This document shows positions 3,589-57,237 of a stretch of DNA of 64,000 nucleotides, piece after piece. The stretch spans positions 6,114-70,113 of the forward strand of contig CANQAH010000001.1 of assembly GCA_947588885.1 (NCBI GenBank), in the 5' to 3' direction. A program made the position numbers and the translations under genes. The notes below the pieces were generated by a model. The model saw nothing but the letters and a program-made list of their open reading frames with translations. It searched no databases and was not told the origin of the DNA. How positions within the stretch are numbered: the first letter of the stretch is position 1; each line of letters starts with the position of its first letter. The DNA comes from an uncultured Clostridia bacterium. GTDB lineage: Bacteria > Bacillota > Clostridia > TANB77 > CAG-508.

Positions 3589-3617
3589 ATAATAAGTAAA
3601 AGTAGTAATTAAGTAAA

Positions 3618-3747: not shown

Positions 3748-5511
3748 ATGAGAGAAAATGAATACAGAACGCATAATTGCAATGAATTAAGACTATCAGA
3801 TGTTGGAAAAGAAATTCGTTTAGCTGGATGGGTACAAAAAATTAGAAATCTTGGAAAAATGACATTTATAGATTTAAGAGATGAATTTGGAATTACACAA
3901 ATTATAATTTCAGATGATGAAAAACTAAAGGACCAAATGGCAGATGTTACTACTGAATGCACTATTTCTGTAAGTGGAAAAGTTGCGGAAAGATCAAATA
4001 AAAATTTGGATATAGCAACAGGTGAAATAGAAATTATTGCTGAAGAAATTCGTGTTTTAGGAAAATGCAAAAATGTACTTCCATTTGAAATAAATCAAAA
4101 GGATCCACAAGAAGTTAGAGAAGATCTTAGATTAGAATATAGATTCCTTGATTTAAGAAATGACAAGATTCATAAAAATATTTTAGACCGTTCTAGAATA
4201 ATTAAAACAATGAGAGATGAAATGGATAGACTTGGATTTACAGAAATTCAAACACCAATCTTAGCAAATTCATCACCTGAAGGAGCAAGAGATTTCTTAG
4301 TACCTAGTAGATTACATCCAGGAGAATTTTATGCACTTCCACAAGCACCACAACAATTTAAACAATTATTGATGGTTTCTGGATTTAATAAATATTATCA
4401 AATTGCACCATGCTTTAGAGATGAAGATCCTAGAGCTGATAGATCACCAGGAGAATTTTATCAACTAGATTTAGAAATGAGTTTTGCAACACAAGAAGAT
4501 GTTTTTGCTGTTTTAGAAGAAGTTATACCAAATGTATTCAAGAAAAATAGTGATTGGAAAATTACTGAAGCACCATTTGTTAGAATTCCATATAAAGAGG
4601 CTATGGAAAAGTATGGAACAGATAAACCAGATTTAAGAAATCCATTATATATAGTTGATGTTACAGAAGTATTTAAAAATACTGAATTTAATGCATTTAA
4701 AGGAAAAACTGTAAAAGCAATAGTAACACATAATATGGAAGAAAAGCCTAGAAAATTTTTCGATCAAATGTCTGAATATGCTGTTTCAGAATTAGATGCA
4801 AAAGGACTAGCTTGGGTTAAAATAGATCAAAATAATGAATTAACAGGTGGAATATCAAAATTCATAACAGAAGAAAATAGAAAAGAACTAGATAAAAAAT
4901 TAGAAATTTCAAAAAATGATGCAGTATTTTTTGTTGCAGATGAATTTGAAAAAGCTCAGAAAATATCTGGTGGAGTAAGAGATGAATTAGGAAGAAGACT
5001 AGAATTAATAGAAAAAGAAATTTACAAATTCTGTTGGATTGTAGATTTCCCAATGTATGAATTATCAGATGAAGGAACAATCGACTTTAATCATAATCCA
5101 TTCTCAATGCCACAAGGTGGAATGGAAGCACTTGAAACAAAAGATCCATTAGATATTTATGCATATCAATATGATTTAGTATGTAATGGATACGAAATTT
5201 GTTCAGGAGCAGTTAGGAACCATGATCAAGAAATAATGATAAAAGCATTTGAAATAGCAGGATATACAGAAGAAGATGTTAAAGGAAGATTTGGAGCTTT
5301 ATATAATGCATTCAGTTATGGTACACCACCACATGCAGGAGCTGCACCTGGAATAGATAGAATTATTATGTTACTTCAAAAAGAAGATAATATTAGAGAA
5401 GTAATAGCATTTCCAAAAAATAAAAAAGCAAGAGACGTTTTGATGAGAGCACCTTCAAAAGTTTCAGAACAACAATTAAAAGATGTTCACATTAAACTAG
5501 ATGTAAAATAA
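3748..5511 (+). CDS. aspS: Aspartate--tRNA ligase, bacterial type, paralog 1 (no T-box leader)
   Basis: 587 aa with class II motifs FRDEDPRADRSPGEFYQLD, QYDLVCNGYEICSGAVRNH and GAAPGIDR. RBS AAGAGGA. Confidence 0.95.
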   Translation: MRENEYRTHNCNELRLSDVGKEIRLAGWVQKIRNLGKMTFIDLRDEFGITQIIISDDEKLKDQMADVTTECTISVSGKVAERSNKNLDIATGEIEIIAEEIRVLGKCKNVLPFEINQKDPQEVREDLRLEYRFLDLRNDKIHKNILDRSRIIKTMRDEMDRLGFTEIQTPILANSSPEGARDFLVPSRLHPGEFYALPQAPQQFKQLLMVSGFNKYYQIAPCFRDEDPRADRSPGEFYQLDLEMSFATQEDVFAVLEEVIPNVFKKNSDWKITEAPFVRIPYKEAMEKYGTDKPDLRNPLYIVDVTEVFKNTEFNAFKGKTVKAIVTHNMEEKPRKFFDQMSEYAVSELDAKGLAWVKIDQNNELTGGISKFITEENRKELDKKLEISKNDAVFFVADEFEKAQKISGGVRDELGRRLELIEKEIYKFCWIVDFPMYELSDEGTIDFNHNPFSMPQGGMEALETKDPLDIYAYQYDLVCNGYEICSGAVRNHDQEIMIKAFEIAGYTEEDVKGRFGALYNAFSYGTPPHAGAAPGIDRIIMLLQKEDNIREVIAFPKNKKARDVLMRAPSKVSEQQLKDVHIKLDVK

Positions 5512-5594: not shown

Positions 5595-6929
5595 ATGAAA
5601 AAAACAAAAATAATATCAATTATTTTTATAACATTAATGATTCTTTTTATAAATTGTGTATCATATGCAAAGTCTGCAAAAGTTACAACAGAAACATTGC
5701 GTATACGAGAGAAGCCAAGCACGGATTCTAAAATAGTGGATATGGCAAATCAAAATGATGATATAGAGGTTATCGGAGAAGAAGGAAGTTGGTACAAAGT
5801 ATCATATAATGGAAAAGAAGGATATGCATCAAAAGAATATATAGATGTAAAAGAAAGTGTAACTTCAAATACTACAGATAACACAAATACACAAGAAAAC
5901 AACATGGGAGATACTGAAAATACAAGTTCAGAGGAAAACACAATAGAACCTGAATCAGAAGAAACGCAAGAACTAATAAAGGATGTTGAAGAAGAATCTA
6001 CTACAAATGAAAAAATTGAAGGTCAATTAGGAAATAAAATTAATTCTAAAACATATGGATTTTTAATACCAAATTTATCTTCAACGAAACTAATAGAAAT
6101 AGAAAAAGATAAGCAAGTAGAAATAATAGAAACAATTTCTAATTGGTCAAAAGTAAAAGTAGAAAATAAAGAAGTATGGATTGCTAATGAATTTTTATAT
6201 GAAGTAATAACAGAAGAATCTACTGAAATACCTGAAGAAACTGAACCAGAAGAAGAACTACCAGCTGAAGATGAAGAAAAAGAAACTACAATAAATCAAG
6301 AAGGATATATATCAGCAAATGCCAGCGTTAATTTAAGAGAAGGGCCAAGCACTAATACGAAAAGTATAGATCAAATTGAAAAGAATACAGCTGTGACAGT
6401 AATATCAGAAATTGATGAATGGTATAAAATATCATACAATGGTAAAGAAGGATATGTATCAAAATCATTAATTACTTTAGGAAAAGCACCACAACCAACT
6501 TCTTCAAGATCTGCTGAAGAATCAAGAAATGACTTAAATGCAATGTCAAAGGGAACATCAATAGTAGAAACAGCAAGTTTATATTTAGGTGGAAAATATA
6601 AATCAGGAGGTTCGTCACCAACAACAGGTTTTGACTGTTCAGGATTTACACAATATATATATTCAATACATGGAATAACAATTCCAAGATCAGCGACGGC
6701 ACAATATAATGGTGGAACAAAAGTAAATAAATCAGATATGCAAATAGGTGATTTAGTATTCTTTTCTGATAATGCAGGAGGAAAATCAATATCACATGTT
6801 GGAATTTATATAGGAAATGGACAATTCATACATGCTGCAAATTCTAAAAGAGGAATTGTAACAAATTCACTAGATACTAATGATAATTATGGATACAATG
6901 AAAAATTCATAGGAGCAGTGAGATATTAA
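5595..6929 (+). CDS. Secreted cell-wall hydrolase: repeated SH3b-type domains, acidic linkers and a C-terminal NlpC/P60 (C40) endopeptidase
   Basis: Signal peptide. WYKVSYNGKEGYxSKEYI is repeated. The C-terminus has FDCSGFTQYIY (catalytic Cys) and ISHVGIYIGNGQFIHA (His). Confidence 0.85.
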   Translation: MKKTKIISIIFITLMILFINCVSYAKSAKVTTETLRIREKPSTDSKIVDMANQNDDIEVIGEEGSWYKVSYNGKEGYASKEYIDVKESVTSNTTDNTNTQENNMGDTENTSSEENTIEPESEETQELIKDVEEESTTNEKIEGQLGNKINSKTYGFLIPNLSSTKLIEIEKDKQVEIIETISNWSKVKVENKEVWIANEFLYEVITEESTEIPEETEPEEELPAEDEEKETTINQEGYISANASVNLREGPSTNTKSIDQIEKNTAVTVISEIDEWYKISYNGKEGYVSKSLITLGKAPQPTSSRSAEESRNDLNAMSKGTSIVETASLYLGGKYKSGGSSPTTGFDCSGFTQYIYSIHGITIPRSATAQYNGGTKVNKSDMQIGDLVFFSDNAGGKSISHVGIYIGNGQFIHAANSKRGIVTNSLDTNDNYGYNEKFIGAVRY

Positions 6930-23642: not shown

Positions 23643-23662
23643 AAATATATTATTGTGAAATA

Positions 23663-23866
23663 TTCGAGCGATGAAAATGCAAAGTAATTGTGACAGAAAA
23701 TCTAGAAGAGAAGAATTACCATAGGCTGAGAGTAATTCAGATTGAAACAATTATGAAACACATTGGAGCTAGTTTTTAAAGTGGGATTTTATCCAATTTG
23801 GGTGGTACCGCGGAAGTAGTTAGTTGAGAGCTTTCGTCCCTTTAGGGCGATGGCTCTTTTGTTTTA
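23663..23866 (+). promoter_or_regulatory. T-box riboswitch leader with apparent AAC (Asn) specifier
   Basis: T-box sequence aatttGGGTGGTACCGCGg at 23795-23813. Terminator gagagc...gctctttt at 23826-23866. Stem I 3-prime side ...atgaAACAcattggagc aligns with ...ggatGGAActttggagc of the Gly T-box at 40.8 kb. Confidence 0.8.
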
Positions 23867-23871
23867 CGTGG

Positions 23872-24285
23872 TTGAAAAAATAATCATCATTCTACGTCGT
23901 TAAATTGCAATCAAAAATCCTCAACGTACTTGTGTACGCCTCCGGTATTTTGATTACAATTTGCCTAGTACAATAATAATTATTTTTTCAACGGCGAAAG
24001 AGTTGAAGAAATGATTTTTTTTCCGACAAGACTAAGCTTGAAAATAATCATCATTCTAGGTTGCTAAATTATAATTAAAATTCTCAACGTACTTGTGTAC
24101 GCTTCCGGTATTTTGATTGTAATTTGCCTAGTATATTAATGATTCTTTTTCCAACTAGTGGGCTTGAAAAAATAATCATCATTCTACGTCGTTAAATTAC
24201 AATCAAAAATCCTCAACGTACTTGTGTACGCTTCCGGTATTTTGATTGCAATTTGCCTAGTATAATAATAATTCTTTTTTCAAGC
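23872..24285 (+). repeat. Family A long-hairpin tandem array (3 units, spacing 166 and 126 bp) lying between the T-box terminator and the aspS2 start
   Basis: Units start with ttgaaaaaataatcatcattcta at 23872, 24038 and 24164. Each has an inner stem aaattgcaatcaaaaat / attttgattgcaattt around the core cctcaacgtacttgtgtacgc(c/t)tccggt, followed by tttgcctagta. Confidence 0.9.
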
Positions 24286-27658: not shown

Positions 27659-27920
27659 TGTGTATTATAAAGAATTCAAATATTATTTATTTGGATTCTT
27701 TTTTTTACTCTGTCTTTTGCACATAATAAATATATTTTTTTTTCCTTGTGGTAACACTTCAAACAAGTTTTTATATTCTAAGAGTTACAAGCAATAAAAA
27801 AGAAGGAAATTTTAGGGTGATAAACTATAAATATTACACAAAGTAAGAATGATTTTTTTCTGACGCGAAGCGACCAAACGAAACGAAGTGTAGTGCGATT
27901 ACGAGCAACTCTTCAGACTA

Positions 27921-28083
27921 GCCTTTATATAATAGAAAAGTGCTACGCATTTTCTATTATATAAAGGCTTCGCTCAAATTGCACACAAATTTTTTAACAA
28001 AAATTTGGCGCATAGAACAAAAATGCGGACAATTTAGAATAATTTTTCCTTTTGCAGATTATATATTGTCCGCTTTTGTTCTT
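27921..28083 (+). repeat. Family B repeat, complete copy, nested inside a larger inverted repeat (27837-27860 / 28111-28133)
   Basis: M1 gcctttatataatagaaaagtgctacgcattttctattatataaaggc. M2 cacacaaattttttaacaaaaatttggcg. M3 gaacaaaaatgcggac...gtccgcttttgttc. Confidence 0.88.
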
Positions 28084-28992: not shown

Positions 28993-29026
28993 AAATAGAA
29001 GAATTTAATGAAAAGGAGAGATATAA

Positions 29027-30028: not shown

Positions 30029-30068
30029 TTTACAGATAGAAAGTAGAAGCATGTATGTGCTTCTATTT

Positions 30069-30225
30069 TTTTATATAAATAGGAAAGTTCTACGAATTTC
30101 TTATAATATAAAGACTTCGCCAAATTTGTACACAAATTTTTTAACAAAAATTTGGCACATAGAACAAAGACGCGGACAATTCAGGATATTTTTTTCTTTT
30201 GCTGATTATATATTGTCCGCTAATA
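30069..30225 (+). repeat. Family B repeat, complete copy
   Basis: tatataaataggaaagttctacgaatttcttataatataaag, then acacaaattttttaacaaaaatttggc, then gaacaaagacgcggac...gtccgc. Confidence 0.88.
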
Positions 30226-31868: not shown

Positions 31869-32212
31869 GTAGATTACATATTGTCTGCTATTGTTATATC
31901 ATAGGAAAGTGCTCCGCATTTTCTATTATATAAAGGCTTCGCCCCAATTGCACACAAATTTTTTAACAAAAATTTGGCGCTTAGAACAAAGACGCGGACA
32001 ATTCAGGATAATTTTTTCTTTTGCAGACTATATATTGTCCGCTATTGTTATATGATAGGAAAGTGCTCTGCATTTCTTATTATATAAAGGCTTCGCTACA
32101 AATCCACACAAAATTTCTAAAGAAATTTTGGCGGGCGAACAATTGACGCGGACTAAAAAAGGTTCTAAGTAGTAAAAATATTAATAATGTCCGCTATTGT
32201 TCTTAAAAAACT
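31869..32212 (+). repeat. Family B repeats: a partial M3 right arm plus two complete tandem copies
   Basis: gtagattacatattgtctgctattgtt, then two M1-M2-M3 units carrying the two alternative M2 variants (aaattttttaacaaaaattt and aaaatttctaaagaaatttt). Confidence 0.9.
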
Positions 32213-44699: not shown

Positions 44700-45710
44700 A
44701 TGGAAAAGAAAATAATGTTAACAGGTGATAGACCTACAGGAAGATTACATATTGGTCATTATTTTGGATCTTTAAAAAATAGAGTTAAAATGCAGGATGA
44801 AGTTGATGAATGCTATATTTTAGTAGCGGATGTTCAGGCTTTAACAGATAATTTTAATAATCCAGAAAAAGTAAGAAAGAATGTAAGAGAAGTTGTTATA
44901 GATTATTTATCTGTTGGAATTGATCCAGAAAAAGTAACAATTTATATTCAGTCAATGATTCCAGAAGTTGCGGAACTTACTGTATTTTATTCAAATTTAG
45001 TTACTATAGCTAGATTAGAAAGAAACCCAACAGTTAAAACTGAGATTGCTCAGAAAAAAGAATTATTTGGTGAAAGTGTAACTTATGGATTTTTAGGCTA
45101 TCCAGTGAGCCAAGCAGCTGACATTACTGCTTTTGATGCAACAATAGTTCCAGTTGGAGAAGATCAGCAACCATTAATTGAACAATGTAGAGAAATAGTT
45201 CGTAAGTTTAATAGTATATATGGAGAAGTTTTAAGAGAACCAGAAGCATATTTATCTGAAACAAAGAGAATAAAAGGTTTAGATGGAAATGAAAAGATGG
45301 GAAAATCTCTAGGAAATGCAATTTACTTATCTGATTCAGAAGAAGAAATAAATAAAAAAGTTATGAGTGCAGTAACAGATCCATCAAGAATAAAAAAAGA
45401 TGATAAAGGGAATCCTGATATATGTATGGTTGCATATTATCATAATTTGTTTAGTACAAAAGAAGAATGTGAAAATGTTTGTGCTGAATGCAAAGCAGGA
45501 ACTAGAGGTTGTGTTGCATGTAAGAAACAATTAGCTAAAAATATTGCAGATACTTTAAAACCTATGAGAGAAAAAAGAGCTTATTATGAGGCTCATCCGG
45601 AATTAGTTGATGAGATTTTAATTAAGGGGACAGAGAAGGCTAGGAAAAAAGCCAAGGAAGTTATGGCGAAGGTGAAGAAGGCTATGAAGCTTGACTACTT
45701 CGACCAATAA
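44700..45710 (+). CDS. trpS: Tryptophan--tRNA ligase
   Basis: TGDRPTGRLHIGHY (HIGH) and KMGKS (KMSKS). 336 aa. No T-box leader seen upstream. Confidence 0.95.
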   Translation: MEKKIMLTGDRPTGRLHIGHYFGSLKNRVKMQDEVDECYILVADVQALTDNFNNPEKVRKNVREVVIDYLSVGIDPEKVTIYIQSMIPEVAELTVFYSNLVTIARLERNPTVKTEIAQKKELFGESVTYGFLGYPVSQAADITAFDATIVPVGEDQQPLIEQCREIVRKFNSIYGEVLREPEAYLSETKRIKGLDGNEKMGKSLGNAIYLSDSEEEINKKVMSAVTDPSRIKKDDKGNPDICMVAYYHNLFSTKEECENVCAECKAGTRGCVACKKQLAKNIADTLKPMREKRAYYEAHPELVDEILIKGTEKARKKAKEVMAKVKKAMKLDYFDQ

Positions 45711-45715
45711 ATTCC

Positions 45716-46220
45716 TTCGAAAAATAAACTTCGTCTTACGTCGTTAAAATTTAATTTTGAAATCCTCATGTATCTATATACACTCCGGTGTTCAAAATTA
45801 AATTTTGCCTAGTAATACTCGTTTCTTTTCCGAAGTTAAAAATATGAAAAATAAACTTCGTATTGCAGTGTTAAAAATAAATTTTAAATTTACATGTATC
45901 TATATACACTCCGGTGTTCAAAATTAAATTTTGCCTAGTAATACTCGTTTCTTTTTCGAAGTTAAAAAATATGAGAAATAAACTTTGTATTGCAGTGCTA
46001 AAAATGAATTTTGAATTTATATGTATCTACATACACTCCGGTGTTCAAAATTAAATTTTGCCTAGTAATACTCGTTTCTTTTCCGAAGTTAAAAAATATG
46101 AGAAATAAACTTTGTATTGCAGTGCTAAAAATGAATTTTGAATTTATATGTATCTACATACATTCCGGTGTTCAAAATTAAATTTTGCCTAGTAATACTT
46201 GTTTCTTTTCCGAAGCTTCG
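45716..46220 (+). repeat. Family A long-hairpin tandem array (4 units, ~126-129 bp spacing)
   Basis: Units start at 45716, 45845, 45971 and 46098. Inner stem aaatttaattttgaa / ttcaaaattaaattt. Core cctcatgtatctatatacactccggtg. Then tttgcctagtaatactcgtttcttttccgaag. Confidence 0.92.
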
Positions 46221-46274: not shown

Positions 46275-47567
<1,293 letters not shown>

Positions 47568-47633: not shown

Positions 47634-47980
47634 AAAAACGCGGACTTAAAAAGATTTTAAGTTCGCGTTTTTGTTATATTATAGGAAAGTTCTCCGAATT
47701 TCCTATAATATAAAGGCTTCGCCAAACTTGTACACAAATTTTTTAACAAAAATTTGGCACATAGAACAAAGACGCGGACTTTAAAATGTTATAAATAGTG
47801 AAAATGTTAATAATGTCCGCTTTTGTTATATTATAGGAAAGTTCTCCGAATTTCCTATAATATAAAGGCTTCGCCAAACTTGCACACAAATTTTTTAACA
47901 AAAATTTGGCACATAGAACAAAGACGCGGACTTTAAAATGTTATAAATAGTGAAAATGCTAATAATGTCCGCTTTTGTTC
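47634..47980 (+). repeat. Family B repeats: a short M3-like hairpin plus two nearly identical complete tandem copies
   Basis: The units at 47673-47826 and 47826-47980 are almost identical. Each has M1 tatattataggaaagttctccgaatttcctataatata, M2 acacaaattttttaacaaaaatttggc, M3 gaacaaagacgcggac...gtccgcttttgtt. Confidence 0.92.
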
Positions 47981-49735: not shown

Positions 49736-49802
49736 TTAAAAAAAGAGGGGGCACTAAAAAAATGAATCCAAATATTATTTGAATTCATTTGAAAGTGTCT
49801 TT

Positions 49803-49961
49803 TTTTATATAATAGGAAAGTGCTCTGCATTTCATATTATATAAAGGCTTTGCTACAAATCCACACAAAATTTCTAAAGAAATTTTGGCGGGCGAACAAT
49901 TGACGCGGACAATCCAGGATGATTTTTCTTTTGGCAGATTACATATTGTCCGCTATTGTTC
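49803..49961 (+). repeat. Family B repeat, complete copy
   Basis: M1 tatataataggaaagtgctctgcatttcatattatata. M2 ccacacaaaatttctaaagaaattttggcgg. M3 gaacaattgacgcggac...gtccgctattgttc. Confidence 0.9.
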
Positions 49962-56837: not shown

Positions 56838-56876
56838 AAATTATAATTTGAGGCTTGCTATTTATAGCAAGCTTTT

Positions 56877-57075
56877 TTATATTATAGGAAAGTTCTCCGA
56901 ATTTCCTATAATATAAGGCATTCCACAGAAAAATTGTTATACAATTTTTCGCAGGCGAACAAAGACGCGAACTTGGCAATAAATTTATATAGTATGACAT
57001 ATAAAAATGTTCGCTATTGTTCTATAATAGGAAAGTGCTCCGCATTTCCTATTATATAAAGGTTTTGCTTCAAAT
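56877..57075 (+). repeat. Family B repeat: one complete copy plus an extra M1 module
   Basis: tatattataggaaagttctccgaatttcctataatata, ccacagaaaaattgttatacaatttttcgc, gaacaaagacgcgaac...gttcgctattgttc, then ataataggaaagtgctccgcatttcctattatataaagg. Confidence 0.88.
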
Positions 57076-57237
57076 TAAATATGATAAATAAAAAATTTTT
57101 ATAAATAATGAATAGAGTAAAAACCCTTAGGGAAAAATATAATTTAAGTATTGCAATTATTAATGTTTTGATATAAAATAAGCATGGTTAAAAGTGACCA
57201 AATTTGAAATGATGTTAAAATCAGAAGGAGGATTTAT

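Follow-up and report, generated by a model that had tools for sequence, protein, structure and literature searches.

ERIC (IRU, RU-1) sequences have been targets of PCR typing for 35 years, although, to our knowledge, where they came from, which enzyme mobilises them and what they do have yet to be settled. In Yersinia, ERICs beside or overlapping stop codons reportedly favour one orientation, as described by De Gregorio in 2005. ERIC is 127 bp long, ends in TA with inverted repeats at its termini, and folds as RNA into long stem-loops. It shares transcripts with the genes that flank it and has an orientation-dependent effect on the upstream mRNA, by way of an RNase E site that the ribosome exposes (PMC2229807, PMC10969869, PMC3184786). 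The orientation-dependent effect is confirmed in reviews (PMC2229807), and ERIC has been reported only in the Enterobacteriaceae and Vibrionaceae (PMC10969869). Other non-autonomous long-hairpin repeats, including Correia/NEMIS (Neisseria), RUP and BOX (S. pneumoniae), RPE (Rickettsia), and bcr1 (B. cereus), are co-transcribed with their neighbours, and some are RNase substrates or mRNA modulators (PMC2229807, PMC10969869).

Here, a set of hairpin repeats (Family A) is described from a 64-kb window, the whole stretch of DNA that was analysed, and from related loci in other genomes. Family A is interpreted, with a probability of roughly 60%, as an ERIC-superfamily, MITE-like element of ~120–165 nt that spans phyla and is co-transcribed with the upstream gene, for which we infer movement and a function as RNA.

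Results

Hairpin arrays in the window

A covariance model built here identified eight full and two partial hairpin units at three sites, with no solitary copies outside these three arrays in the 64 kb. Each unit folds into a rod-like hairpin of ~120 nt, in which the internal loops are invariant and the stems are copy-specific yet complementary. The sequence TTTGCCTAGTA (≤1 mismatch) occurs 12 times in the window compared to 1.7 expected, and the full core pattern five times compared to 0 expected.

Array 3 is bounded by the end of the trpS ORF (45710) and the start of the next ORF (46278), which we take to be obg, the name given in the first-pass annotation; at orthologous loci, the ORF in the trpS position belongs to the tRNA-synt_1b family. 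Four head-to-tail hairpins of ~125 bp had been proposed 3′ of trpS, and both Tandem Repeats Finder (45722–46215, period 127, 3.9 copies, 94% matches) and the covariance model bear this out. Unit 1 (45716–45835, + strand) is intact (98.5 bits), has an RNA fold of −27.8 kcal/mol with the canonical architecture, and has a hairpin base that begins 5 nt past the trpS stop codon (45708–45710). Units 2–4 (45843–45961, 45970–46088, and 46097–46215, + strand) are degenerate tandem duplicates (65.8, 62.0, and 60.8 bits) with altered 5′ arms that match the 3′ arms poorly; they fold at −16 to −27 kcal/mol, and the inner stem is disturbed. The apical core, previously described as retained, is present in full at the five positions noted above, but CCTCA is replaced by TTACA or TTATA in these three units. 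A relative that is 86% identical (L082) has one unit at this site, the counterpart of unit 1, compared to four in the window, and array 3 is therefore a local amplification, in which the first unit is ancestral and of the functional type and the next three are tandem duplicates in decay.

Array 2 has the same architecture, as first proposed, with three units on the + strand (23872–23992, 24036–24156, and 24164–24284; 107.8, 71.0, and 107.1 bits) placed between a T-box terminator and the aspS start codon. The T-box leader (23662–23844, + strand; Rfam RF00230, 66.7 bits, E = 1.4e-14, under the gathering score of 93) is 5′ context and lies outside the element. The inner-stem sequence is unlike that of array 3; the sequences at both sites are as originally quoted, and pairing is kept in each.

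Array 1, described as an inverted array at positions 1–470, fits that description only in part: it contains one complete unit on the − strand (364–481; 93.4 bits), antisense to pyrG (+ strand, starts at 496). Midway along the inner stem of this unit, direct-repeat-like strands (CTTCATTCG / CTCATTCG) face each other in an internal loop, as they do in ERIC. The remainder does not consist of complete units and forms a composite 184-nt repeat (1–354, − strand; 2.2 copies with a period of 184 in Tandem Repeats Finder) that runs off the end of the window and holds partial units at 301–354 and 108–179 (partial model matches, 20.7 and 29.1 bits) and 3′ halves of the 364–481 unit type.

Fold, conserved modules, and covariation

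The outer stem, inner stem, and apical region of the original description are recovered in the folds of intact units (z of −6 to −7 compared to shuffles). In array 3 unit 1, the 5′ side of a lower loop module (GTC-GT-T, 45740–45745, + strand) pairs with or faces GC-CTA (45807–45811), and the module is closed by P3 (TTAC, 45736–45739, with GTAA, 45812–45815). The columns of this module are invariant or nearly so (83–97 copies), and its 3 × 3 loop, 2 bp, and 1-nt bulge occur in all folds and in the ERIC consensus fold. The apical module (AATCC-TCA, the 5-bp hairpin TGTAT-ctat-ATACA, and CTCCGGT; 45761–45789, + strand) is an exact match to the core pattern, with a 5-bp stem that covaries (CG/UA, AU/GC). 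For the family, the lower module is C-NNN-GU-U ... GC-CUA-G and the upper module is AAUCC-UCA, a 5-bp NGUAC hairpin, and then YUCCGGU, both almost invariant. Both modules are asymmetric internal loops, while the stem sequences drift with compensation.

In the inner stem, an alignment from MAFFT alone was not good enough for RNAalifold, and copies were aligned by transferring individual folds to columns, followed by covariance-model realignment. Pairing was kept when the alignment was extended to 142 copies, with 86.3% of cells paired compared to 64.4% in shuffles and 35–48% with slid partners, and with changes on both sides in 48 of 50 base pairs. Arms taken from the same copy pair at −7.0 kcal/mol in the inner stem and −19.2 kcal/mol in the outer stem, compared to −1.6 and −7.3 kcal/mol, respectively, for arms from different copies. 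The folds are common to copies from Clostridia and from high-GC genomes (z of −5.5 to −9.7 in seven of eight folded; the Clostridia copy L028, −2.8). Conserved loops with swapped but paired stems are thus highly non-random in >140 copies from two phyla, a pattern that fits the general idea of the first-pass annotation, namely that the repeats are either structured RNAs or hairpins of the REP/BIME/MITE type that a protein recognises. Clostridia units measure 118–123 nt, those of Betaproteobacteria reach about 165 nt, and the element contains no ORF.

The loops carry the palindromic tetranucleotides CCGG, CTAG, and GTAC. On the antisense strand there are two GGA motifs, and on the sense strand both loops have CCUC or CCUCC; a CsrA sponge through the former, or an anti-Shine-Dalgarno mimic through the latter, is speculation.

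Distribution of the family

Family A is a large group of intergenic hairpin repeats that spans phyla and had not been recognised before. The exact core pattern matches at least 119 loci, mostly from metagenome-assembled genomes (MAGs) of low-GC gut Clostridia, and 19 of the matches listed are from high-GC (42–68% GC) MAGs or genomes, nearly all labelled Beta- or Gammaproteobacteria, with stems recoded to the GC content of the host. Hosts include Clostridia MAGs, such as Clostridium sp. CAG:452 and Ca. Scatovivens, and among the Proteobacteria the Methylophilaceae, Casimicrobium, Nitrosomonadales, Alteromonadaceae, and soil Gammaproteobacteria MAGs. In ~0.85 Mb of loci, the covariance model has ~170 matches (some are antisense duplicates), with up to 5–6 per 8 kb. 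For the element, the window has no match at gathering score in Rfam 15 (4227 models), and in E-value mode the units and eight loci returned chance matches only (miRNA, snoRNA, and sRNA models). The core pattern was unmatched in viral contigs, and plasmids yielded nothing informative except an E. coli chromosome filed as a plasmid, the source of the ERIC lead. Literature searches with the motif strings or descriptive terms found no description of the family.

Genomic position and turnover at orthologous sites

Copies are co-oriented with the upstream ORF in 87 of 95 cases, and the upstream stop codon usually lies about 0–6 nt 5′ of the hairpin base or inside the element. Of 93 copies, 71 have the stop codon 43–53 nt upstream of AATCCTCA, and in 11 others it falls within the 5′ arm. 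Proteobacterial copies keep to the same spacing, with a long sense-strand ORF ending beside or within the hairpin base at several loci. Copies directly after co-oriented stop codons are therefore expected to be transcribed within the upstream mRNA. The distance to the downstream start codon ranges from 8 to >1000 nt, while that to the upstream stop codon is fixed, and convergent gene contexts also occur; a riboswitch or leader of the downstream gene was rejected on these grounds. Array 1 and two E. coli copies (see below) are antisense to neighbouring genes. Flanking genes are unrelated housekeeping genes, ribosomal protein genes included, and the 107 Pfam families among 88 upstream proteins rule out a specific partner gene, so that the association with highly expressed housekeeping genes initially suggested for the arrays is unspecific. 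What is regular is how the element is placed and oriented with respect to the upstream stop codon.

Orthologous sites were variously filled, empty, partly deleted, or tandemly amplified. Two loci (L076 and L016) have the element right after a stop codon where flank mapping and alignments place an empty site in the window, a 34-nt spacer between two co-oriented ORFs (28993–29026, + strand), and a second pair of loci shows the same difference (L062 filled, L001 empty). Empty sites are without a hairpin, which rejects insertion into pre-existing palindromes. One locus (L108) has a 110-nt internal deletion of the element, an Alteromonadaceae isolate genome (L109) has tandem copies, and at one orthologous site different genomes hold different subfamilies. 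Many copies are kept at one site in different species, for example after rplW, trpS, nrdJ, and a gene ending in ERIGTLVK, and a single MAG (L118) has five co-oriented copies in 8 kb, perhaps a ribosomal-protein gene cluster. A TA on both flanks was found at 0 of 106 hairpin bases called by RNAfold (noisy calls), target duplication was unreadable in the filled and empty site pairs, which are too diverged, and no transposase was found beside any copy in the 8-kb flanks of the loci. The element termini are complementary, but their outermost base pairs vary from copy to copy, in contrast to the terminal repeats that transposases recognise. Family A resembles a MITE in being short, multi-copy, ORF-free, and present or absent at orthologous sites.

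The same observations bear on whether the element could be an immobile, host-selected cis-regulatory RNA, an intercistronic or 3′-UTR structure whose two loops would have a conserved protein, an RNase, or the ribosome as binding partner and whose multi-copy state would stem from ancient dispersal followed by vertical inheritance. Loop nucleotides invariant across two phyla amid recoded stems, strict orientation and stop-codon spacing, the retained sites, and the five co-oriented copies of L118 would all be accounted for. This reading is considered unlikely given the filled, empty, and partly deleted orthologous sites, the subfamilies that differ at one site, the decaying duplicates in array 3, the antisense position of array 1 and the E. 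coli copies, the absence of a G·U excess on the sense strand, and the lack of a specifically associated gene class. It overlaps the ERIC-superfamily interpretation and does not exclude it.

Probable relationship to ERIC

An unbiased blastn search with a proteobacterial copy as query recovered a family of ~118-nt hairpins in E. coli (E = 7e-4 and 3e-3), with members in the nuoL-nuoM and pheM-pheS spacers. This mini-family scores 27.5 and 15.8 bits with the Family A covariance model, and the alignment score of the pheM-pheS copy to the ERIC consensus (from PMC2759123) is 42, a value reached by 4 of 1000 dinucleotide shuffles (p about 0.004), forming a bridge between Family A and ERIC. The ERIC consensus folds with a lower module (C-UGC-GU-U ... 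GC-CUU-G) and an upper module (UCA-CUUAC-UUAU-GUAAG-CUC) at the spacing of Family A, and the apical descriptor TCA-NNTAC-loop-GTANN-YTCC matches the ERIC consensus and, in the 64-kb window, only family copies; this module comparison is post hoc, because the shared modules were noticed only after seeing ERIC. When 50 kb of E. coli (100 kb on both strands) was scanned blind with filters off, both resident ERICs were among the 12 matches, at full length and in the predicted orientation (ranks 2 and 9; 12.3 and 9.6 bits), though the canonical ERIC at 12.3 bits is no better than an adjacent, unrelated REP-like hairpin at 11.4 bits. In direct sequence comparison the case for homology is weak: an nhmmer profile of Family A did not place the ERIC consensus above shuffled decoys, and the mean pairwise score of Family A copies against ERIC (23.2) is barely higher than in shuffles (20.9).

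Both families are rod-like imperfect palindromes of ~120–127 nt with end-to-end pairing, located in the intergenic spacers of operons and in 3′ regions. Both have the lower module C-NNN-GU-U / GC-CUN-G at equal spacing, an apical UCA, a 5-bp NNUAC hairpin with a tetraloop, and CUC, as well as a direct-repeat-like internal loop, TTCNCTCA. In contrast, of the ERIC core CCCCAG-TCA-CTTAC-TTAT-GTAAG-CTC-CTGGGG (the ERIC1R/ERIC2 primer region), Family A shares TCA-NNTAC-loop-GTANN-CTCC but has AAAAUCC/CGGUUUU in place of the CCCCAG/CUGGGG stem, and it has its own invariant GUUAAA and UUUGCCUAG motifs. The ERIC termini (TATAC...GTATA) are not conserved in Family A and a TA target duplication was not found, tandem arrays are a feature of Family A as opposed to ERIC, and the hosts are gut Clostridia and Beta/Gammaproteobacteria MAGs rather than Enterobacteriaceae and Vibrionaceae. 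In short, Family A has the end-to-end palindrome of ~127 bp, the intergenic location, and the orientation preference near stop codons (with co-transcription expected) that mark the ERIC superfamily, but shows neither conserved terminal repeats with TA duplication nor the enterobacterial/Vibrionaceae host range.

The likeness may instead be convergent, with Family A an unrelated new MITE or structured-repeat family that came to have this size, hairpin shape, and genomic position by chance, as might be expected from the nhmmer result, the marginal ERIC model scores that an unrelated hairpin about equals, the pairwise scores near shuffle level, and the post hoc module comparison. We consider convergence doubtful, since the blind 100-kb scan recovered both ERICs in the correct orientation, the E. 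coli bridge is joined to Family A by both blastn and the covariance model and to ERIC by the shuffle test, and two loop modules, the module spacing, and the internal loop are common to both families. Family A appears to be related to ERIC, as a sister group or within one superfamily. The statement in the first-pass annotation that no described element has this core is wrong in spirit, as ERIC/IRU elements match Family A in both loop modules and the distance between them, in a size of ~127 nt, and in the stop-codon position, and as E. coli has the bridging mini-family.

Strand and comparison with other repeat systems

In 107 of 125 copies, the more stable fold is that of the antisense strand, and variable stem pairs include 228 A·C oppositions compared to 115 G·U pairs, with no G·U enrichment on the sense strand; neither the folding of the two strands nor the G·U and A·C counts single out an active strand. 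The window has strong positive GC skew throughout and its genes are co-oriented, so that gene orientation and replication direction are confounded. With genes so strongly co-oriented in these genomes, replication direction could be what underlies the orientation bias. An element acting as single-stranded DNA, of the REP/REPIN or IS200/IS605-end type, whose folded hairpin an HUH (RAYT-like) enzyme would recognise on the lagging-strand template and whose orientation would follow replication rather than transcription, could accommodate this confounding, the antisense fold that is at least equally good, the symmetry of G·U pairs, the palindromic tetranucleotides, and the conserved asymmetric loops, which resemble sites of hairpin-binding enzymes. 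It is nonetheless improbable, since replication alone does not predict the tight 0–6 nt stop-codon spacing and since, at several loci in Proteobacteria, a group with weaker gene-strand bias, a long sense ORF ends next to or inside the hairpin base. No Y1/HUH gene was seen beside copies in a non-systematic look at ~0.9 Mb of flanking DNA, and neither a RAYT-type gene nor any other partner gene was identified in the 8-kb flanks. REPs, at 20–40 nt with conserved stems, have the opposite pattern.

REP/BIME/REPIN repeats resemble Family A as abundant extragenic hairpins, often just past stop codons, that may cluster and whose folded form is recognised by a protein. They differ in that REPs have a conserved stem and a GTAG-type head, and REPINs are inverted pairs of REPs, whereas Family A is ~120 nt with variable stems and conserved loops; neither its length nor its stem/loop pattern is that of REP/RAYT systems. 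The Correia/NEMIS, RUP, BOX, RPE, and bcr1 repeats are, like Family A, non-autonomous long hairpins (100–160 nt), but each occurs in a single genus or family and carries terminal repeats that are conserved, and none has the Family A loop motifs. We know of none among them that is conserved across phyla, as Family A is. Integron attC sites (e.g., Vibrio VCRs, 123–126 bp) are similar as imperfect palindromes immediately 3′ of co-oriented ORFs, with structure conserved over sequence and a bottom strand that folds better. An attC identity was rejected, as the motif order is reversed (RYYYAAC 5′ and GTTRRRY 3′ in attC; GTTAAA 5′ and TTTGCC 3′ in Family A), and as attC flanks cassettes near intI, whereas Family A occurs beside housekeeping operon genes without intI, as head-to-tail units without a cassette. 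An intrinsic terminator (a GC-rich stem leading into a free U-tract is absent) and tRNA-like, SRP, 6S, or retron RNAs (no motif match) were also rejected.

Discussion

If Family A is a MITE-like member of the ERIC superfamily, a mechanism can be proposed by analogy with Yersinia ERICs. The RNA hairpin would act as an intercistronic or 3′-UTR element, in which a ribosome terminating at the adjacent stop codon would melt the lower stem and so alter how accessible the conserved loops are to an RNase or another protein; the altered access may then change the stability or processing of the upstream relative to the downstream part of the transcript. Clostridia are generally without RNase E, and the Yersinia mechanism therefore cannot transfer unchanged.

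Several consequences follow from the structure of the family. The recoded stems together with ~30 invariant loop nucleotides provide a comparative handle, and as stems are fully recoded while loops are invariant, the comparison pinpoints the positions that a partner protein or RNase must read. A hairpin base 0–6 nt after a co-oriented stop codon is a testable rule that fits a ribosome-gated RNA mechanism, and the copy in the E. coli K-12 pheM-pheS leader, from the bridging family, is a tractable model. Family A is also a candidate new RNA class that is abundant, strongly covarying, and absent from Rfam, and it matters for the assembly and annotation of gut MAGs, in which the repeats break contigs and lengthen or shorten ORF ends.

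More tentatively, ERIC-type elements may not be peculiar to enterobacteria but one branch of a class of structured modules, RNA or ssDNA, that spans phyla through great age or through horizontal transfer, in which a factor reads both loops and the hairpin serves as a ribosome-gated intercistronic switch at stop codons. Were this broader idea true, some gut Clostridia would use such a switch between many co-oriented genes, including those of the ribosomal protein S10 operon (after rplW), and the conserved loops would identify the long-sought partner of ERIC, whether a conserved host factor or a mobile one.

Units in the window and their fold

The Family A hairpin repeats (~120–127 nt) were mapped across the window with R1, a covariance model of the family built in this analysis (scores in bits), and the R1 map provides the definitive unit coordinates. 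Four units were identified in array 3 (45716–46215, + strand), three in array 2 (23872–24284, + strand), and one complete unit (364–481, − strand) plus two partial units (301–354 and 108–179) in array 1, with no further units outside of the three arrays in the scan of all 64 kb. Tandem Repeats Finder recovered array 3 (45722–46215) with a period of 127 nt, a copy number of 3.9, and 94% matches; the array is located between an ORF ending at 45710 (trpS) and an ORF starting at 46278 (obg in the first-pass annotation). The window has a GC content of ~28%, and within it TTTGCCTAGTA, allowing at most one mismatch, occurs 12 times (1.7 expected), confined to three sites, while the core pattern AATCCTCA-N12–18-TCCGGT-N10–18-TTTGCCTAG occurs five times (0 expected).

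The intact units bear out the fold claimed in the first-pass annotation (z-scores of −6 to −7), with an outer stem, a short C-G-closed helix, a small internal loop, a 14–17-bp inner stem, and an apical region carrying a 5-bp hairpin. The earlier count of four units in array 3 agrees with R1, but units 2–4 are degenerate (61–66 bits compared to 98.5 bits for unit 1), having lost CCTCA and possessing a mismatched 5′ arm. The proposed inverted copy of the architecture at 1–470 holds for one complete unit only, as the site is otherwise a scrambled 184-nt composite.

A second abundant intergenic repeat, Family B (unit ~152 nt), occurs in the window at 27917–28068, 30064–30215, 31886–32191, 47666–47969, 49797–49948, and 56865–57090, with fragments at 3614, 10967, 11528, 17104, 32809, and 63550. 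Family B units contain two internal hairpins (TATATTATAGGAAAG...CCTATAATATA and CCAAA...TTTGG), are present singly and as tandem pairs, one directly after obg, and had no Rfam match in the window at the gathering score.

Structure and covariation

Clostridial and proteobacterial copies fold into a common rod, consisting of variable outer stems (P1/P2), a C-G-closed helix of 4–7 bp (P3), a lower module (5′ GUY-GU-U opposite 3′ GC-CUA), a variable stem of 10–16 bp (P4), and an upper module (5′ AAUCC-UCA, a 5-bp hairpin N-GUAC/GUAC-N with a 3–7-nt loop, and 3′ Y-UCCGGU). When arms were swapped between copies, P4 folded at −7.0 kcal/mol with its own arms compared to −1.6 kcal/mol with the arms of other copies, and the outer stems at −19.2 compared to −7.3 kcal/mol, with the same outcome in the Clostridia alone. 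In a model-guided alignment of 142 distinct copies, itself fitted to the structure under test, standard pairs filled 86.3% of cells (64.4% in shuffles, 35–48% with slid partners), both sides had changed in 48 of 50 pairs, and the covariation score was 0.496 compared to 0.143. P4 is interrupted midway by an internal loop in some subfamilies, including that of the complete unit 364–481, and the strands of this loop, CTTCATTCG and CTCATTCG, are alike in direct orientation.

Palindromic tetranucleotides (CCGG, CTAG, GTAC, and TTAA) are frequent in the conserved loops of all copies. Both upper-loop strands carry CCUC or CCUCC on the sense strand, which may resemble an anti-Shine-Dalgarno sequence, and the antisense strand has two GGA motifs ~20 nt apart, reminiscent of a putative CsrA binding site.

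The antisense fold was the more stable for 107 of 125 copies, with G.U counts equal between the sense and antisense minimum-free-energy folds. Pooled over columns, A.C oppositions (n = 228) exceeded G.U pairs (n = 115) among the variable stem pairs.

Host range and abundance

Using one genome per species, the exact core pattern was found in at least 119 loci (each ~8 kb). Among the matches listed, the majority were from low-GC uncultured gut Clostridia, including Clostridium sp. CAG:452, Ca. Scatovivens, and MAGs from rabbit, chicken, goat, and Hadza people, with multiple copies per genome in several genomes. A further 19 of the matches listed were from high-GC MAGs and genomes (42–68% GC), nearly all Proteobacteria: Methylophilaceae and Methylotenera, Casimicrobium, Nitrosomonadales and Burkholderiales, soil Gammaproteobacteria, and one Alteromonadaceae isolate genome, along with one MAG labelled Opitutaceae that may be a mis-binned contig. 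The stems of these high-GC loci match the host genome in being GC-rich but the loop motifs have not changed, and the copies are therefore considered resident and not contamination. R1 identified 144 matches when the first 100 loci were scanned and another 32 among the remaining 19, with up to five or six in 8 kb at the densest loci. No viral contigs matched the core pattern, and no family in Rfam 15 matched Family A at any threshold. Family A is real and more than a local repeat; it is very large and spans phyla.

The isolate genome, Alteromonadaceae bacterium XY-R5, has two tandem copies (L109:6419–6668), and tandem arrays are therefore not peculiar to the Clostridia. As a cultured gammaproteobacterium, XY-R5 provides a cultivable experimental host for Family A.

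Position relative to genes

Among pattern-matched copies in low-GC loci with a callable upstream ORF, 87 of 95 were co-oriented with that ORF. Given the strong co-orientation of genes in these genomes, the bias cannot be separated from an effect of replication direction. The upstream sense stop codon lies 43–53 nt 5′ of AATCCTCA in 71 of 93 copies, with a mode of 47–53 nt (0–6 nt before the first R1 base), and within the 5′ arm in 11 more (e.g., in GAAAAATAA), such that the element encodes the last codons of those 11 ORFs. Proteobacterial copies have the same placement, beside nrdJ, proA, and others. Distances to the next gene were far more variable (8 to >1000 nt), and convergent contexts (n = 5) outnumbered divergent ones (n = 1–2). 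Together with the fixed stop-codon distance, this spread and the convergent contexts place the element 3′ of the upstream gene and not in the leader of the downstream gene. No specific gene association was detected, with the upstream proteins of 88 copies distributed among 107 Pfam families, including DNA polymerase III beta, L23, EF-G, NrdD, ferredoxins, and PBPs.

Two arrays in the window are exceptions: array 1 is antisense to pyrG, and array 2 is preceded by a T-box leader and followed by aspS. The T-box leader (23662–23844, + strand; 66.7 bits, E = 1.4e-14) was missed by the default Rfam scan because it scores below the gathering score of 93, and the three Family A units separate its terminator from the aspS start codon.

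One 8-kb Clostridia MAG locus, L118, contains five co-oriented elements, all on the − strand (968–1089, 3804–3924, 4979–5098, 5350–5471, and 6409–6530), in what may be a ribosomal-protein gene cluster. Ribosomal-protein operons normally rely on tight translational coupling, and if L118 is such an operon it would be unusual to find 120-nt hairpins packed this densely.

Gain, loss, and amplification

Orthologous spacers were found filled, empty, partial, or with multiple units. The trpS–obg spacer has four units in the window compared to one in an 86%-identical relative (L082), and the window spacer 28993–29026 is empty where loci L076 and L016 have an element directly after the orthologous stop codon. 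At another site L062 is filled and L001 empty. In L108, all but the first ~30 nt of the element found in L038 and L036 is missing. After a gene ending LLGMPFK/R, one subfamily is present in L045 (1139–1259), another in L033 (3008–3128) and L097 (4027–4149), and the spacer is empty in L048 (~4657–4692), suggesting repeated insertion or replacement by recombination. Sites after rplW, trpS (including L106), nrdJ, and a gene ending ERIGTLVK are occupied across several species. Elements have therefore been gained, lost, and amplified, and also long retained.

The outermost base pairs vary from copy to copy, and no TA target duplication was detected at copy flanks (106 hairpin bases, noisy calls), which argues against a classical transposase reading terminal repeats. 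In two Clostridia MAGs (L032:2208–3108 and L031:717–1368), a small ORF between rplW and rplB of the S10 ribosomal protein operon (134 and 96 aa, respectively; beginning MDKQEKLKAKVLADTLRLMATKIENGFP; no Pfam match) is flanked by two Family A elements in inverted orientation, a possible MITE-cargo-MITE composite. In L045 and L061 the two inverted elements are separated by 166 nt and the small ORF is absent, and L098 has one element only.

Relationship to ERIC

A gammaproteobacterial copy, compared by blastn with plasmids and E. coli genomes, led to an unannotated E. coli hairpin (36/41 identities; E = 7e-4 and 3e-3), located in the nuoL–nuoM spacer of 722 of 5426 E. coli genomes (L120:1479–1564). 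It belongs to a mini-family with 1–6 members per genome (~118 nt each) that possess the Family A apical module (R1, 27.5 and 15.8 bits). In K-12, one member is found between pheM and pheS (L121:617–702, from a K-12 derivative), where it follows the attenuator within the pheST leader, antisense to the operon. Over its own length, this copy aligned with the 127-nt ERIC/RU-1 consensus, as printed in PMC2759123, with a score of 42 reached by 4 of 1000 dinucleotide shuffles; the mini-family is probably related to ERIC.

Both modules recur in the ERIC consensus fold, with the spacing they have in Family A. The lower module is C-UGC-GU-U-GGC opposite GCC-GC-CUU-G in ERIC and C-GUY-GU-U-AAA opposite UUU-GC-CUA-G in Family A; the upper module is CCCCAG-UCA-CUUAC-UUAU-GUAAG-CUC-CUGGGG in ERIC and AAAAUCC-UCA-CGUAC-NNNN-GUACG-CUC-CGGUUUU in Family A. 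The 12 × 12 internal loop of ERIC (TTCGCTCA / TTCACTCA) is similar to the direct-repeat-like loop that interrupts P4 in some subfamilies. A descriptor written post hoc, after ERIC had been seen (TCA-NNTAC-loop-GTANN-YTCC, NN complementary), matched only family copies in the window and also matched the ERIC consensus. In a blind scan with R1 (filters off) of a 50-kb stretch of E. coli with exactly two resident ERICs, both were among 12 matches (ranks 2 and 9), full length and in the predicted orientation. Against the link, R1 gave a REP-like hairpin adjacent to an ERIC about the same score as ERIC, nhmmer with a Family A profile did not find ERIC, and mean pairwise Family A–ERIC scores were near shuffle level. 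With shared modules but weak direct scores, Family A is therefore filed as ERIC-like, at the level of superfamily or architecture, and not as ERIC proper.

Reviews describe ERIC as MITE-like, a 127-bp repeat bounded by terminal inverted repeats, with TA at its termini, that forms long RNA stem-loops; in Yersinia it is co-transcribed with flanking genes and has an orientation-dependent effect on upstream mRNA, ascribed to an RNase E site that is exposed in a ribosome-dependent manner (PMC2229807, PMC3184786, PMC10969869). Its hosts on record are the Enterobacteriaceae and Vibrionaceae (PMC10969869). Family A is best described as a cross-phylum, ERIC-type, MITE-like structured repeat and not as a categorically new element. 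De Gregorio et al. (2005, J Bacteriol 187:7945) reportedly observed that Yersinia ERICs beside or overlapping stop codons prefer one orientation, a rule that Family A obeys.

Possible function

Family A combines a covarying hairpin having two invariant loop modules with sense placement at stop codons and a dynamic of insertion, deletion, and amplification. The element would be co-transcribed with the upstream gene, and the lower 6–12 bp of the hairpin would have to open whenever a ribosome terminates at the stop codon next to it. Such melting could control whether an RNase or another protein reaches the conserved loops, and control of this kind could tune the relative stability of upstream versus downstream cistrons.
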